Shown piece by piece: positions 10,941 to 24,000 of a stretch of DNA of 24,000 nucleotides (positions are counted from its first letter, which is position 1; each line of letters opens with the position of its first letter). Source of the DNA: an uncultured Chloroflexia bacterium (GTDB lineage: Bacteria > Chloroflexota > Anaerolineae > B4-G1 > SLSP01); the NCBI GenBank assembly GCA_963700595.1, contig CAVOYE010000022.1, positions 119,033 through 143,032 on the forward strand, given 5' to 3'. The translations under genes were made by a program, and so were the position numbers. The notes under the pieces are model-generated. The model was not told where the DNA came from. It was given only the letters and a program-made list of their open reading frames with translations, and did no database searches.

Positions 10941-11015
10941 CGGGGCGTGGCCCAGCTTGGCTAGGGCGCTACAATGGGGTTGTAGAGGTCGACGGTTCAA
11001 ATCCGTCCGCCCCGA
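10941..11015 (+). tRNA. tRNA-Pro: tRNA-Pro, anticodon GGG; CCA is not encoded
   Basis: The cloverleaf was folded by hand. The acceptor stem is CGGGGCG/CGCCCCG and the D stem is GCCC/GGGC. The anticodon stem is CTACA/TGTAG with loop A-T-GGG-G-T (U33 and G37 present). The variable loop is AGGTC. The T arm is GACGG-TTCAAAT-CCGTC, and the discriminator is A. Confidence 0.9.
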
Positions 11016-19175: not shown

Positions 19176-20573
19176 GTGATCAGAAAAATTTTGGTTTCCA
19201 TACTAGCCTTGGTATGTGCAGGTAGTTGTCGCTCATTTGCATTCCCATCGGGGGCTGAAGGTATAGGAGACCCCTATTATCCGCAATTGGGCAACGGTGG
19301 TTATGATGTCTTGCACTATACACTTGAGTTGACTGTTGATCCACAGTCCAATATGCTCTCTGGTATCTGTTCTTTACAGGCTCGGACAACACAACCATTA
19401 AAGATTTTCAATCTGGATTTTTCGGGTTTAACCGTTGAGAAAATCACCGTCAACGATTTCCCGGGTAAATACAAGCGCGATGAACGTGAGTTAATAATTA
19501 CTTCATCCCAACCAATAAATGAAGGCGACATATTTACAGTTACTGTTTCATATAGTGGTTCACCGGAAACTACTCGTTCACTTGGCGGGTGGTTCCAAGC
19601 AGGATGGTTTCACAACACGGATGGCGAAATATACGTTTCCAGCGAATTTTCTGGAGCTTCAACGTGGTATCCGGTTAACGACCATCCACTTGATAAAGCA
19701 TCCTACAGTTTCCGCATTACGGTCCCTAAACCCTATGTGGTTGCTGCCAACGGCTTACTGCAAAATGAGGTGGATAACGGTAACACAGTGACCTATTTCT
19801 GGGAAGCTTCAGAACCTATGGCTAGTTACTTAACTACCCTTAATATCGCGGAATATGTAATAGAATCTGAACAGGGTCCGGATGGTATACTCATCCGCAA
19901 TTACTATCCACCTGATTTTCCTGAAACAGCAAAAAAGGGATTTAATCAGACGGCAGAAATGCTGGTTTTCTTCAGTGACCGTTTTGGACCTTATCCCTTC
20001 GCGGCTTATGGATCAATCATTGTTGATATACCTGAGTTTAGTTTTGGTGCAATGGAAACACAAACCCTTTCGCAGCATGGTCTACGGCACAATGCCATCG
20101 CGGAAACCATAGTTGCGCATGAATTAGCGCATTCGTGGTTTGGCAACAGCGTAAGCCTGGAAAGTTGGCAAGATAACTGGCTTAAGGAAGGGGCGGCAAC
20201 ATATGCTGAGTGGATCTGGGAAGAACAGAAAAAAGGTGTTGAAGCACTAGAAAAGACAGTTCGCGGCGTGTATCAGATTGAATCACGGGCTGAACAATCA
20301 CCTGGCAACCCTTCACCATCAAACTTAGTAATCGATTCTGTATACGACCGGGGTGCACTCACATTCCACGCTCTGAGATTACGTGTAGGAGATGAGATGT
20401 TTTTCCAGATCCTACGAACATACACGGATCGCTTTCGCTATAGCAATGCCAGTACTGCCGATTTTATTGCAATTGCTGAAGAGATCAGTCGTCAAGACCT
20501 GGATGATTTTTTCAACGCTTGGTTATATACGAAGGAGATCCCTGCTATACCAGAGATGGAATTGGTGCCTTAA
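19176..20573 (+). CDS. M1-family zinc metallopeptidase (aminopeptidase N-like), secreted
   Basis: SD aaagggagg lies upstream of GTG 19176, and the N-terminus is a hydrophobic signal segment. The exopeptidase motif is FGAMET. The zinc site is HELAHSWFGN-x13-E, which matches HExxH-x18-E. Confidence 0.9.
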   Translation: MIRKILVSILALVCAGSCRSFAFPSGAEGIGDPYYPQLGNGGYDVLHYTLELTVDPQSNMLSGICSLQARTTQPLKIFNLDFSGLTVEKITVNDFPGKYKRDERELIITSSQPINEGDIFTVTVSYSGSPETTRSLGGWFQAGWFHNTDGEIYVSSEFSGASTWYPVNDHPLDKASYSFRITVPKPYVVAANGLLQNEVDNGNTVTYFWEASEPMASYLTTLNIAEYVIESEQGPDGILIRNYYPPDFPETAKKGFNQTAEMLVFFSDRFGPYPFAAYGSIIVDIPEFSFGAMETQTLSQHGLRHNAIAETIVAHELAHSWFGNSVSLESWQDNWLKEGAATYAEWIWEEQKKGVEALEKTVRGVYQIESRAEQSPGNPSPSNLVIDSVYDRGALTFHALRLRVGDEMFFQILRTYTDRFRYSNASTADFIAIAEEISRQDLDDFFNAWLYTKEIPAIPEMELVP

Positions 20574-20845
20574 GCCAAAATATTCATCTCCCACAATCAA
20601 GGTTAATATTTCGGTTATACAATACCGTTCAGTATTATCCACAACTGCGAATGGAAAATCTTGCAAAAGAGCCGGGTGTGTTTTAATTTTAAGGCAAAAA
20701 GAAGCTTGGTGTCTTTTTAACGCGGGCCTGCATCCTGTGAGGATGTGGCGGCGGGGAAGCCAACATAGAAATTGAGAGCAGATTATTCCGCGCCTCACAA
20801 AGAAACTGTTTAAAATAGAAGCTGGCCCTTTCTTAAAACACCTTG

Positions 20846-20867
20846 CTTGACACGTATACTTGACAAG
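20846..20867. promoter_or_regulatory. 22-bp imperfect palindrome (candidate operator) overlapping the -35 box
   Basis: CTTGACACGTATACTTGACAAG is centred on GTATAC, and 9 of 11 positions are self-complementary. CGTATACT recurs at 20880-20887, overlapping the -10 box. Confidence 0.4.
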
Positions 20868-20887
20868 TTAATCTGATGTCGTATACT
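20860..20887 (+). promoter_or_regulatory. Strong sigma70-type promoter driving the small ORF and ABC exporter leader
   Basis: Consensus TTGACA at 20860-20865, a 16-nt spacer, then TATACT at 20882-20887. Confidence 0.6.
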
Positions 20888-20915
20888 GTAATTACCTTTG
20901 GAGAGACACATTCTT

Positions 20916-20999
20916 ATGATGAAAAATGCCGTTGTACTATTCCATGTTGTGCAAATACCAGATGCCAACATCATGACCTTAGGAGAGGTGCGTCTCTGA
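20916..20999 (+). CDS. 27-codon small ORF (MMKNAVVLFHVVQIPDANIMTLGEVRL); candidate leader peptide
   Basis: It is too short for the ORF track. GGAGAG lies 10 nt upstream of the ATG-ATG start, and the stop is TGA at 20997-20999. It sits between a strong promoter and a strong terminator, directly upstream of the ABC genes. The coding status is not proven. Confidence 0.35.
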   Translation: MMKNAVVLFHVVQIPDANIMTLGEVRL

Positions 21000-21027
21000 G
21001 CCAGTAGCAGGATTTAACAGTATTGTA

Positions 21028-21064
21028 AGCCGTGGACGTCACTGACGCTCACGGCTTTTTTTTT
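21028..21064 (+). terminator. Rho-independent terminator/attenuator 20 nt upstream of the ABC exporter start codon
   Basis: AGCCGTGGACGTC (21028-21040) pairs with GACGCTCACGGCT (21044-21056). This is a 13-position stem with one mismatch, one G-T pair and a 3-nt loop. It is followed by a run of 9 T ending at 21064. Confidence 0.75.
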
Positions 21065-21083
21065 GCCATAACAGGAAAACATC

Positions 21084-22895
21084 ATGAAAAAAACAATAAA
21101 CAGATATTGGAAATTACTCAAGACTTATGTCCAACCGCAATGGGTGCGCGTCGTTTGGCTCCTACTCCTATTGTTCGTCAATATTGCTTTAAGATTAACC
21201 AATCCGCAAATTATGCGGACTTTTATTGACGCTGCTGTGGCTGGAAAAGCTTTTGCGGAGCTAATGGAATTAGGTCTGGTATTTTTAGGTGTCGCACTAC
21301 TGACCCAAGCCTTAGCGATCATCAGCACTTATTTAAGCGAGATAGTGGCATGGACCGCAACCAATTCCCTGCGGCAGGAGATGCTCAAGCATTGTCTGGA
21401 GCTGGATCAGGCATTTCACAAAGCGCATAAGCCAGGCGAGTTAATTGAAAGAATTGATGGTGATGTGGATACGTTATCGAACTTTTTCTCTAAATTCATC
21501 ACCAATATTTTTGCTAACTTCATCCTCCTCCTGGGCATAATCATTCTGCTGTTCCTTGAAGATTGGCGGATTGGGGCAGCGTTGACCGGGTTTGCTGTTA
21601 TCGGGCTGGTTCTGATGGTTGCCACCCGTAAAATTGCGATTCCCTACTGGACAAAAGTCCGCAAAATACGGGCGGAGTTTTATGGTTTTTTGGGTGAGCA
21701 ACTTACCGGTACGGAAGAAATTCGGGCCAATGGTGCGAGTGGATACGTTATGTGGCGATTCTATAATACTTTGCGACAGTGGCTGCCCATCGACCTCAAA
21801 GCCAGCCTGGCAGGTTACTCAATGTGGATGACCAGCAGCGCGATTTTTACAGTTGGGACAGCAATTGCTTTCGCTGTTGGGTCGCTGTTGTGGTACCAGG
21901 GTGTGATGACGATTGGCGCGGTATATCTGGTTGTGCACTATACCGAATTACTGCGCGGTCCTATGTCTGAAATCAGAACCCAACTTGCTGACTTGCAACG
22001 CGCGGAGGCAAGTATGGGCAGGATTGAGAAACTTATGCAGCGCCTTCCACGGATTGTGGACGGTCCGGTGGAACAACTACCGGAGGGTCCATTAAGTGTG
22101 GCATTCGACAACTTGTCTTTTGCTTATGATGATGAAATGCCCGAGGCAGCATCTGAAGAGAAATCTGAAAAACCAGCGGAAGAAGCTGTAGTCCGTGAAA
22201 ATGAGCTCGTTTTACAGAATTTGTCTTTTAGCTTAGATCCGGGAAGAGTGTTAGGATTGCTGGGACGCACCGGCAGCGGTAAAACCACGCTAGCACGGCT
22301 TTTGCTCCGTATGCACGATCCTACGGAAGGTGAGATTCGGCTGGGTGATTACCGGTTACCTGATCTCAATGTCAGAGCCTTGCGGGAGAGGGTGGGGATA
22401 GTGACCCAGGAAGTGCAGTTGTTCCAGGCAAGTGTGCGCGACAACCTCACTTTTTTCGATGACACCATCCCTGACGATCGCTTGCACCAGGTATTTGATA
22501 CGCTGGGTTTAACCGAATGGTTGGCGCAGCAGCCACAGGGTTTGGAGACTCAACTGGAATCCGGGGGTGGGGGACTGTCTGCCGGACAGGCTCAACTCCT
22601 GGCTCTTGCCAGAATTTTCCTTTACGATCCGGGACTGGTCATTCTGGATGAAGCCTCATCGCGGCTTGATCCAATGACGGAATTTCTGATGGAGCGCGCT
22701 ATGGACAAACTCGTCCAAAACCGCACTGTGATTATCATCGCGCACCATCTGGGAACTGTAAATCGGGCGGATGACATCATGATTCTGGATCGGGGATCAA
22801 TCCTGGAGTATGGTAACCGGACCACACTGGCAGGTGACAGCAAAACGCAATTCTACGGACTATTGCAGTCCGGTATGGAAGAGATGCTGGTTTGA
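21084..22895 (+). CDS. ABC exporter half-transporter (N-terminal type-I TMD plus C-terminal NBD)
   Basis: The six-helix ABC membrane domain is followed by Walker A GRTGSGKTT, Q-loop VTQEVQLF and signature LSAGQAQLLALAR. Walker B is LVILDEASSRLD and the H-loop is IIIAHHL. An acidic insert (DDEMPEAASEEKSEKPAEEA) sits at the start of the NBD. Confidence 0.93.
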   Translation: MKKTINRYWKLLKTYVQPQWVRVVWLLLLLFVNIALRLTNPQIMRTFIDAAVAGKAFAELMELGLVFLGVALLTQALAIISTYLSEIVAWTATNSLRQEMLKHCLELDQAFHKAHKPGELIERIDGDVDTLSNFFSKFITNIFANFILLLGIIILLFLEDWRIGAALTGFAVIGLVLMVATRKIAIPYWTKVRKIRAEFYGFLGEQLTGTEEIRANGASGYVMWRFYNTLRQWLPIDLKASLAGYSMWMTSSAIFTVGTAIAFAVGSLLWYQGVMTIGAVYLVVHYTELLRGPMSEIRTQLADLQRAEASMGRIEKLMQRLPRIVDGPVEQLPEGPLSVAFDNLSFAYDDEMPEAASEEKSEKPAEEAVVRENELVLQNLSFSLDPGRVLGLLGRTGSGKTTLARLLLRMHDPTEGEIRLGDYRLPDLNVRALRERVGIVTQEVQLFQASVRDNLTFFDDTIPDDRLHQVFDTLGLTEWLAQQPQGLETQLESGGGGLSAGQAQLLALARIFLYDPGLVILDEASSRLDPMTEFLMERAMDKLVQNRTVIIIAHHLGTVNRADDIMILDRGSILEYGNRTTLAGDSKTQFYGLLQSGMEEMLV

Positions 22896-22932: not shown

Positions 22933-24000
22933 ATGAAAACTTATCAATATATGTGGCGATTGATGCGCTATCGCCCAATCCTGTATCTGTTCGACGTTCT
23001 GACATGGGTGATATTAACCCTTGTGGAACTCACCCCCGGTTTGCTGGCGAAATTGTTCTTTGATACATTAACGGGTGACCAACCCTATCGATTTGGGGTG
23101 ACGGGTGTCGTGATCTTATTGTTGGTATCAGAGCTTGTTCATTTAATATTGATTACCACAGGTGCACTGCTGGATACCCAGCACCGATTCCGCATGAGTG
23201 CGCTTGTCCGCAGAAATATGTTAGCGCACGTTCTGCAACGACCCGGTGCACGAGCCATTCCAGGTTCAACCGGTGAAGCCCTGAATACTTTCAGAGATGA
23301 CGGGCAAACCATTGAGGATATTCTGAGCTGGTTTGTTGACCAGGTGAGTATTGCCGGCTTTGCATTTGCCTCTCTGTTTATCATGCTGCGGATCAACACG
23401 CGCATTGCCCTGATTACAATTCTGCCTTTGCTTGCGGTTATTACCATTGCCCGTTTGATGGGAAGCCGGGTCAGCAAATTCAGGGAATTGAGCCGGCATG
23501 CTACAGAGCGCGTCACTGGCGCCCTGGGTGAAGCCCTCAATTCGGTACAGGCGATCCAGGTGGCGAATGCTGAGAAAAGTATCATGAAGCACCTGGAAGG
23601 TCTAAACACCACGCGCCGCAAACTGGTCATCAATGACCGTTTGTTGACGCAAATACTGGATTCAATCTACCGGAACGCAGGAGCTTTAGGTACAGGTATG
23701 ATTCTGGTACTTGTCGCAGAATCGATGAAAACGGAGCAATTCAGTATGGGTGATTTTGCCCTGTTTGTATATAACTTGAGCATTCTTACAGAGTTTTTCG
23801 CCAACTTCGGCGACTTTTTAGCTTATTACAAACAAGCCGGCGTCTCTTTCCAGCGCTTGACAGAATTTATTCAGGGAAAACCGCCGGATATATCGCATGA
23901 AAAGGCTGCTGACATTTTACTGCAATATAATTCACTGTATTTAAGGGAACAGGAACCTAAGAGACCTACGGGTGCGTCATTATCAGCAGCACCGCTGCAA
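22933..24000 (+). CDS. Second ABC exporter half-transporter, 3'-truncated by the window edge (TMD only in view)
   Basis: This ORF is absent from the supplied track. I read every codon from ATG 22933 (SD gagga 5 nt upstream) to base 24000 and found 356 sense codons with no stop. The translation (MKTYQYMWRLMRYRPILYLFDVLTWVILTLVEL...) has the helix pattern and loops (GEALNTFRDD, ERVTGALGEALNSVQAIQV) of an ABC type-I exporter TMD. It starts 37 nt after the first ABC gene. Confidence 0.88.
   Translation, partial: MKTYQYMWRLMRYRPILYLFDVLTWVILTLVELTPGLLAKLFFDTLTGDQPYRFGVTGVVILLLVSELVHLILITTGALLDTQHRFRMSALVRRNMLAHVLQRPGARAIPGSTGEALNTFRDDGQTIEDILSWFVDQVSIAGFAFASLFIMLRINTRIALITILPLLAVITIARLMGSRVSKFRELSRHATERVTGALGEALNSVQAIQVANAEKSIMKHLEGLNTTRRKLVINDRLLTQILDSIYRNAGALGTGMILVLVAESMKTEQFSMGDFALFVYNLSILTEFFANFGDFLAYYKQAGVSFQRLTEFIQGKPPDISHEKAADILLQYNSLYLREQEPKRPTGASLSAAPLQ

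Follow-up and report, generated by a model that had tools for sequence, protein, structure and literature searches.

How is a two-gene ATP-binding cassette (ABC) exporter expressed when an intrinsic terminator stands directly before its first gene? The question is raised by a 24,000-nucleotide stretch of DNA from an uncultured Chloroflexia bacterium (contig CAVOYE010000022.1, positions 119,033 to 143,032; hereafter the window), in which a promoter, a small open reading frame (sORF) and a terminator precede the exporter genes ABC1 and ABC2. The first-pass annotation of this DNA had recognized the layout of ribosome-mediated transcription attenuation. Comparison with orthologous loci supports that layout by the conservation of every element in 10/10 loci. 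Together with the predicted RNA structures, it indicates that the leader is probably a ribosome-mediated (leader-peptide) transcription attenuator gating a heterodimeric ABC exporter operon.

The leader was read directly at sequence level, and promoter-like sites were scanned in 19500-22000. The near-consensus promoter claimed earlier was confirmed, with TTGACA at 20860-20865 and TATACT at 20882-20887 separated by a spacer of 16 nt, and is the best promoter-like site of the scanned range. The scan yielded 4 sites against 4.2 expected, so a single promoter-like match alone is not beyond chance. Transcription of the leader would start at about 20893-20895. The 27-codon ORF was confirmed by direct reading. 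It starts with ATG-ATG, is preceded by a Shine-Dalgarno (SD)-like GGAGAG (20900-20905), and encodes MMKNAVVLFHVVQIPDANIMTLGEVRL*. The terminator, earlier described as a 13-position stem with a T9 tract, proved to be a hairpin of 13 pairs with one A.C mismatch. A simple terminator scan omitted this hairpin because of the internal mismatch, while RNAfold finds it. The T-run ends 19 nt before the ATG of ABC1, and this gap contains only the SD sequence AGGA, as had been noted. No promoter-like site was found by the scan between the sORF promoter and ABC1 (20888-21084). The exporter therefore depends on terminator read-through, which supports the earlier claim that its genes are expressed in this way only. 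A second TTGACA is located at 20847, and the octamer CGTATACT is doubled (20853-60 and 20880-87). Both features are limited to the window, L014 and L015, and suggest a possible tandem or duplicated promoter.

Orthologous loci comprised all ABC1 relatives of at least 67% identity with retrievable DNA. Nine such sequences from Anaerolineae metagenomes and metagenome-assembled genomes (L001, L006, L008, L009, L010, L014, L015, L016 and L017), drawn together with the window from at least nine different samples, gave a set of ten leaders. Promoter, sORF, the block at its end, terminator with T-run, and exporter SD and ATG are found at the same place in all ten loci, an arrangement that exceeds chance. 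A short ORF plus terminator, for which the orthologous ABC pairs were to be checked according to the first-pass annotation, is kept in 9/9 relatives. TTGACA is invariant, the spacer measures 16 or 17 nt, and the -10 element is TATACT or TATAAT. The gene upstream of the leader is divergent in most relatives, for which reason the leader needs its own promoter. The distance from T-run to ATG is 19-30 nt, and ACAGGA precedes the ABC1 ATG in each leader. The flanking genes vary. A divergent acetyl-CoA synthetase gene adjoins the leader in most loci (e.g. L001, L014, L016), and a peptidase M1 gene (19176-20573 in the window) sits between the two only in the window and L015. With different flanks among relatives, the leader-ABC unit represents a conserved module. 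In L015 (ENA contig_18940), several short genes are called in place of the peptidase M1 gene and of each of the two ABC genes. Assembly indel errors are the most likely cause, and single-base differences in this locus need care. L007, an ABC1 orthologue of 61% identity, has no such leader upstream. Directly upstream of this orthologue, whose true ATG is at 2086, five tandem 21-nt units TTTGAAATTCCTAGTGAAGGA occur (1924-2032), each of which can fold into a small UCCU/AGGA hairpin. They may constitute a different control region.

RNA structures common to the leaders were predicted with RNAalifold, run on 6 and on 10 leaders, and strand pairing with RNAduplex. RNAalifold yields three helices, P1, P2 and the terminator (Table 1). 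The 5′ strand of P1, strand 1, holds the SD-like GGAGAG and the AUG of the sORF; the 3′ strand (20978-21000) lies within strand 2 at the end of the sORF. Variation in P1 is confined to the 5′ strand, and its complementarity to strand 2 is kept among the relatives. L010 has lost the motif AGAGAC, and its nine bases before the AUG, CGCAUCUCU, are a 9/9 complement of AGAGGUGCG in the same block. L016 carries GGAGAU in the 5′ strand and forms wobble pairs. Eight of the ten leaders show P1 energies between -16 and -20 kcal/mol, which fewer than 10 of 300 shuffles reach in four of them. P2 lies within the sORF and shows compensatory double changes in 4/8 pairs. The covariation score of the whole structure, 0.200, compares with 0.147 +/- 0.012 for shuffles, none of 500 reaching it, and is above all slid controls. 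As a conjecture, P2 may be a scaffold joining strands 1 and 2, or a pause hairpin.

Table 1. Features of the leader and the exporter genes in the window.
Feature	Position	Strand	Basis
Sigma-70-type promoter, TTGACA-16-TATACT	20860-20887	+	11/12 match; conserved in 10/10 leaders
Strand 1, P1 5′ strand (predicted anti-antiterminator)	20897-20918	+	RNAalifold, RNAduplex
Leader sORF, 27 sense codons + UGA	20916-20999	+	AUGA invariant, frame open in 10/10
P2 hairpin within the sORF (AUGUUG-U-GCA / UGC-CAACAU)	20944-20971	+	Compensatory changes
Strand 2, last 6-7 codons, stop, GC	20978-21001	+	17/22 columns invariant
Strand 3, terminator 5′ arm + loop	21027-21043	+	11/14 columns invariant
Intrinsic terminator, 13-bp stem (21027-21057) and T9 (21056-21064)	21027-21064	+	-17.9 kcal/mol
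ABC1 SD, AGGA	21073-21076	+	Sequence
ABC1 half-transporter (transmembrane + nucleotide-binding domain)	21084-22895	+	Pfam ABC_membrane + ABC_tran
ABC2 partner half-transporter, runs past the window end	22933-24000	+	Pfam ABC_membrane

To find an antiterminator, the terminator 5′ arm was compared by RNAduplex with all leader sequence upstream of it. Mutually exclusive structures, which the first-pass annotation had proposed to look for by folding, were found as a candidate: in every one of the ten leaders, the 5′ arm pairs best with strand 2 (-10.8 to -16.3 kcal/mol). The candidate helix of the window joins 20987-21001 (GGUGCGUCU-c-UG-a-GC) to 21029-21043 (GC-CG-u-GGACG-u-CACU) with an energy of -14.2 kcal/mol, and its 5′ strand overlaps the 3′ strand of P1. 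As strand 2 is thus shared with P1, the leader would follow the classical 1:2, 2:3 and 3:4 design, in which strand 3 pairs either with strand 2 or with strand 4. The energies in the window are about -17, -14 and -18 kcal/mol for P1, antiterminator and terminator, respectively. Mean identity is 0.95 for strand 2 and 0.93 for strand 3, compared with 0.56 for strand 1 and 0.80 for strand 4, and only 6/14 columns are invariant in the terminator 3′ arm. High conservation of strands 2 and 3 is expected if each has two partners. Conservation extends to the noncoding GAGC past the sORF stop. The variants of the terminator loop are all pyrimidine (CACU, CUCU, CCUU, CCCU), and each complements a register of GGAGAGGUG. 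In L001, the stem base GCCG/CGGC is changed to ACCG/CGGU, and the bases after the stop became CCGGU, restoring the pairing with ACCG. This change and the unequal conservation of the strands support the candidate helix indirectly. The terminator itself ranges from -13.8 to -23.7 kcal/mol across the family, with a T6-T9 run in 10/10 leaders and one stem pair with compensatory G-C to A-U changes.

Other partners were tried and rejected. Simple co-transcriptional minimum free energy (MFE) folds gave no consistent partner for the terminator 5′ arm, and the P2 strands or the linker showed no consistent pairing with it. Strand 2 with the terminator 3′ arm was weaker and inconsistent. The apparent direct repeat of CGUCUCUGA at the ORF end and CGUCACUGA in the terminator results from the palindrome GACGUC and does not represent a signal separate from the 2:3 complementarity.

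The proposed attenuator would operate through these mutually exclusive helices, P1 (1:2), antiterminator (2:3) and terminator (3:4). In the absence of a ribosome, P1 would form, followed by the terminator, and transcription would end at 21064. A normally translating ribosome would reach the stop codon and cover strand 2 while the polymerase makes the terminator, again with termination as the outcome. A ribosome held at the start or the first codons would cover strand 1 and leave strand 2 free. Free strand 2 could then engage the terminator 5′ arm while the 3′ arm is still to be transcribed, and the polymerase would read into ABC1 and ABC2. If a finishing ribosome has to mask strand 2, this would explain why the sORF stop coincides with the 3′ boundary of that strand and why the ORF length is conserved. 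Computationally, the scheme was followed by constrained folding of transcripts that end ahead of the terminator 3′ arm, a 30-nt ribosome mask being shifted along the codons. With codon 1, 3 or 5 masked, the antiterminator is part of the MFE structure in 10/10 leaders; with codon 23 or a later one masked, it never is. When no ribosome is placed, P1 prevails in roughly half of the leaders, and the two states of the window are close. The folds thus switch among P1, antiterminator and neither by the codon occupied. A conserved open short ORF and a terminator without intervening promoter are joined by a segment that, according to the folding model, a ribosome can mask, which are features of an attenuator. 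The signal is likely slowed translation, and by analogy with bmrCD and vmlR, ribosome-targeting antibiotics that trap ribosomes at or near start codons would provide it.

The nature of the sORF bears on a translation-independent alternative, an RNA switch in which P1 and P2 sense a small molecule, a protein or a small RNA and the ORF is incidental. A factor would stabilise or open P1 and in this way set terminator versus antiterminator. P1 and P2 are indeed RNA-level features, and residues in the middle of the peptide change in couples that preserve base pairs (GUU/AAC, GCU/AGC, GCUA/UAGC), i.e. Val/Ala together with Asn/Ser. The last codons GUG CGU CUC show zero synonymous changes in ten sequences. 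A 1-nt insertion before the invariant block of L008 alters the last six residues, while the nucleotides are kept. Poor spacing of the sORF SD fits an RNA switch as well. The earlier suggestion of a secreted peptide or exporter substrate is not supported: conservation is missing from the N-terminal half of the peptide, covariation in the conserved parts follows RNA pairing, and the frameshift in L008 changes the C-terminal peptide.

Translation is suggested by the reading frame. The AUGA at the sORF start is invariant in 10/10 leaders, as is the block AGGAnnGGUGCGUCUCU(G/A)A at the sORF end, and the length is 27 or 28 codons, in L008 30. Stops are absent from frame 0 in all leaders and present in frame 1 in nine and in frame 2 in five, with a chance of 0.25-0.42 per sequence for an open frame. 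The 25-column junction between P1 and P2 has a nucleotide identity of only about 0.38, unlike a ligand pocket, a value that is also given for the stretch from the AUG to the invariant block, yet the frame is stop-free in 10/10. Two of three indels comprise whole codons. The stop codon is UGA in 9/10 leaders and UAA in 1/10, so that the sole substitution preserves it. The invariant AUG and the kept stop codon speak against an RNA switch. The leader also has no family in Rfam 15, which gave none at gathering score and only chance-level matches (E >= 0.5) in 20560-21100, and no regulator gene is conserved beside the operon at the orthologous loci compared. Furthermore, stabilisation of P1 would turn the exporter off, an unusual logic. 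An RNA switch is therefore rather unlikely, and selection seems to act on the act of translation, not on the peptide product. The ten sORFs share no stretch of codons for a single amino acid, so that amino-acid sensing is not indicated.

Other reading possibilities around the sORF were recorded. A stop in the -1 frame (TAG or TAA; 21005-21007 in the window) is located 8 nt past the sORF stop and kept in 10/10 leaders; the 30-codon ORF of L008 ends at this codon. The next in-frame stop past the sORF stop lies at +48 in L006, L009, L010 and L017 and at +72 in L015, and none occurs before ABC1 in L001, L008 and L014. In the window (TAA at +18) and L016 (+27), it falls short of the terminator. Entry of a ribosome into the terminator via stop-codon read-through is thus possible in 8/10 leaders, excluding the window and L016, and was rejected as a common mechanism. 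A Cys-rich ORF of 43 codons (MSYTVITFGETHSYDEKCRCTIPCCANTRCQHH..., 20876-21007) overlaps the leader in an alternative frame and begins inside the promoter. It is probably no gene, with stops in 5/10 relatives.

Several findings weigh against the attenuator. The sORF SD is weak or distant: GGAG/AGAG is present at 10-14 nt from the AUG across the leaders and at 10-12 nt in the window, compared with 4-7 nt at other genes of the window, and is nearly absent in L009. The conserved AGAGAC near this SD fits RNA pairing better than ribosome binding. Two observations limit the candidate antiterminator, which would be mutually exclusive with the terminator. As neither of its strands varies, the helix shows no covariation, and its energy is marginal, a fraction of 0.05-0.25 of shuffled partners equalling it. 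As in other attenuators, full-length RNA always favours the terminator thermodynamically, and hence the model depends on kinetics. The truncated, ribosome-free MFE structure of the window already contains the antiterminator, the energy balance being close. Finally, the sample consists of only ten fairly close sequences. A protein scan of genome contigs gave only distant ABC proteins of 25-27% identity. A metagenome scan with the DNA pattern of the two invariant blocks gave three chance matches in GC-rich coding sequence, and a viral scan gave 0. The pattern scans added no family members. The 2:3 helix is the weakest link of the attenuator reading.

A statistically unconvincing antiterminator, together with a strong promoter and a strong terminator, would also be compatible with an independent small gene for a peptide or an RNA of about 170 nt. 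The exporter would then be expressed by constitutive leaky read-through at a fixed ratio, and nothing would be sensed. Leader peptides and RNAs that derive from attenuators and act in trans are known (peTrpL; PMC7298713). However, the unit is always fused to the exporter in the ten loci, at the short distance from T-run to ATG given above, while the flanks differ. The N-terminal half of the peptide is not conserved, and a plain terminator does not explain why the GAGC after the stop and the terminator 5′ arm are invariant and the 3′ arm is not. An independent small gene is distinctly unlikely on these grounds.

A function beyond that of a translation-speed sensor is given little probability. 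Either the conserved half of the peptide, with its RF2-read stop, would be a novel Chloroflexota arrest peptide that senses a drug or a metabolite, or the abundant terminated transcript of about 170 nt, or its peptide, would act in trans. In such a case, the -1-frame stop downstream of the sORF could be a safeguard or part of a frameshift-sensitive device. A trans-acting terminated transcript or peptide would resemble rnTrpL/peTrpL.

The motif [HR][AV]V[QR]xPxA[NS]xxx[LV]G[EKG]VRL plus stop is common to 8/10 leader peptides, and UGA and UAA, the only stops found, are both read by RF2. These features suit a sequence-specific arrest peptide. A particular drug or metabolite would be recognized in the exit tunnel by the conserved C-terminal half, ..AVQxPxAS..LGEVRL-UGA, with stalling at or close to termination as for TnaC or MsrDL; MsrDL stalls at termination (PMC10314930). 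Such an arrest peptide is very improbable. When a ribosome stands on the stop codon, strand 2 is covered and the ribosome edge stays at least 16 nt short of the hairpin, so that termination and not read-through is predicted. Moreover, the conserved residues coincide with RNA helices, the peptide of L010 is devoid of the VQxP part, and the C-terminus of L008 is different.

Among known systems, bmrB of Bacillus subtilis had been named as precedent. In bmrB, the terminator lies within the 162-bp leader ORF, whose end is 119 bp from bmrC; read-through is induced by lincomycin and other ribosome-targeting antibiotics and needs leader translation and the internal terminator (Reilman et al., 2014, PMC4191407). 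Both leaders place a promoter-proximal small ORF and an intrinsic terminator before a heterodimeric ABC exporter with one degenerate site. For both, anti-antiterminator, antiterminator and terminator are predicted, with expression by read-through. Here, in contrast, the sORF has 84 nt, the terminator lies 27 nt past its stop with the T-run ending 19 nt ahead of ABC1, and the anti-antiterminator uses the SD and start of the sORF itself. The phylum is Chloroflexota (Anaerolineae), and no sequence relation is evident. The proposed logic matches the precedent, whereas the anatomy places the leader outside the bmrB family, as probably analogous and not homologous.

The classical 1:2, 2:3, 3:4 design is that of the trp-type attenuators of E. 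coli (summarised in PMC4191407). Shared with these are the four segments, a pause or 1:2 helix, a 2:3 helix (here a candidate) weaker than 3:4, and the predicted decision by ribosome position. The leader stop likewise lies beside segment 2, which a finishing ribosome would mask. Segment 1 is here the ribosome-binding site itself and not an internal ORF segment. The logic of vmlR of B. subtilis is a closer match than that of bmrB. Its upstream ORF lies inside an anti-antiterminator hairpin, and a ribosome stalled at the start blocks the hairpin base, which allows an antiterminator to fold and transcription to pass the intrinsic terminator (Takada et al., 2022, PMC9226507). NusG-dependent pausing has been shown for vmlR (PMC9226507). 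The internal SL-2 pause hairpin of vmlR is comparable to P2 in position and possibly in role. Differences are the upstream ORF of 3 codons and the regulated product, an ABC-F ribosome-protection factor instead of a membrane exporter. In addition, vmlR has a hairpin that sequesters the SD of the main gene. Like msrDL-msrD, the present leader combines a leader peptide with an intrinsic terminator before a resistance gene of the ABC superfamily or its counterpart. The stalled ribosome on msrDL itself covers the hairpin (Fostier et al., 2023, PMC10314930). Unlike there, the stop codon lies 30-32 nt upstream of the hairpin, at 30 nt in the window; direct occlusion by a terminating ribosome is thus impossible, and an RNA antiterminator is needed. 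Among the papers listed by a full-text literature search, none joined Chloroflexi with attenuator-leader terms.

The start of ABC1 was confirmed as noted before. ABC1 has the Walker B motif ILDE with the catalytic Glu kept and contains no LSGGQ. The nucleotide-binding domain of ABC2 lies beyond the window, and its motifs were taken from the full-length orthologue in L001, which has the Walker B motif VFDD (Asp for Glu) and an LSGGQ signature. ABC1 without canonical signature and ABC2 with Asp for Glu imply one degenerate ATP site. Judged by these motifs, the pair appears to belong to the heterodimeric ABC exporters with one degenerate site (BmrCD/TM287-288). Bacterial PDB relatives among the matches listed are TM288, SAV1866, YheH (8t1p_D), 6raf_A (chain of a multidrug-resistance ABC transporter) and 7ocy_B (unnamed ABC transporter chain). 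Named homologues are from Anaerolineae, Caldilineaceae and other Chloroflexota.

The neighbours in the window are ordinary chromosomal genes according to Pfam, i.e. lepA, FTHFS, an ADP-forming acetyl-CoA synthetase and peptidase M1. After the peptidase M1 stop and ahead of the leader promoter, the DNA is GC-rich at 20690-20800 and includes the hairpin GCATCCTGTGAGGATGTGGC; this stretch is nearly identical in L015 (2330-2450). A tRNA gene (10941-11015) is the sole Rfam match at gathering score in the window.

Most demonstrations of inducible, ribosome-sensing leader control over multidrug-type ABC exporters come from Firmicutes. The leader described here is a structurally independent, unannotated family of what is probably a known kind of regulator, found in an under-studied phylum, and family and phylum are new for the mechanism; a new principle is not revealed. 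With about 190 nt, the element is compact and suited to heterologous reporters. It marks the exporter pair as probably responsive to translation stress and thereby offers a clue to the function of an ABCB-type transporter that is otherwise anonymous. The leader family suggests that environmental bacteria have convergently come to use the ribosome as a sensor for inducing exporters.

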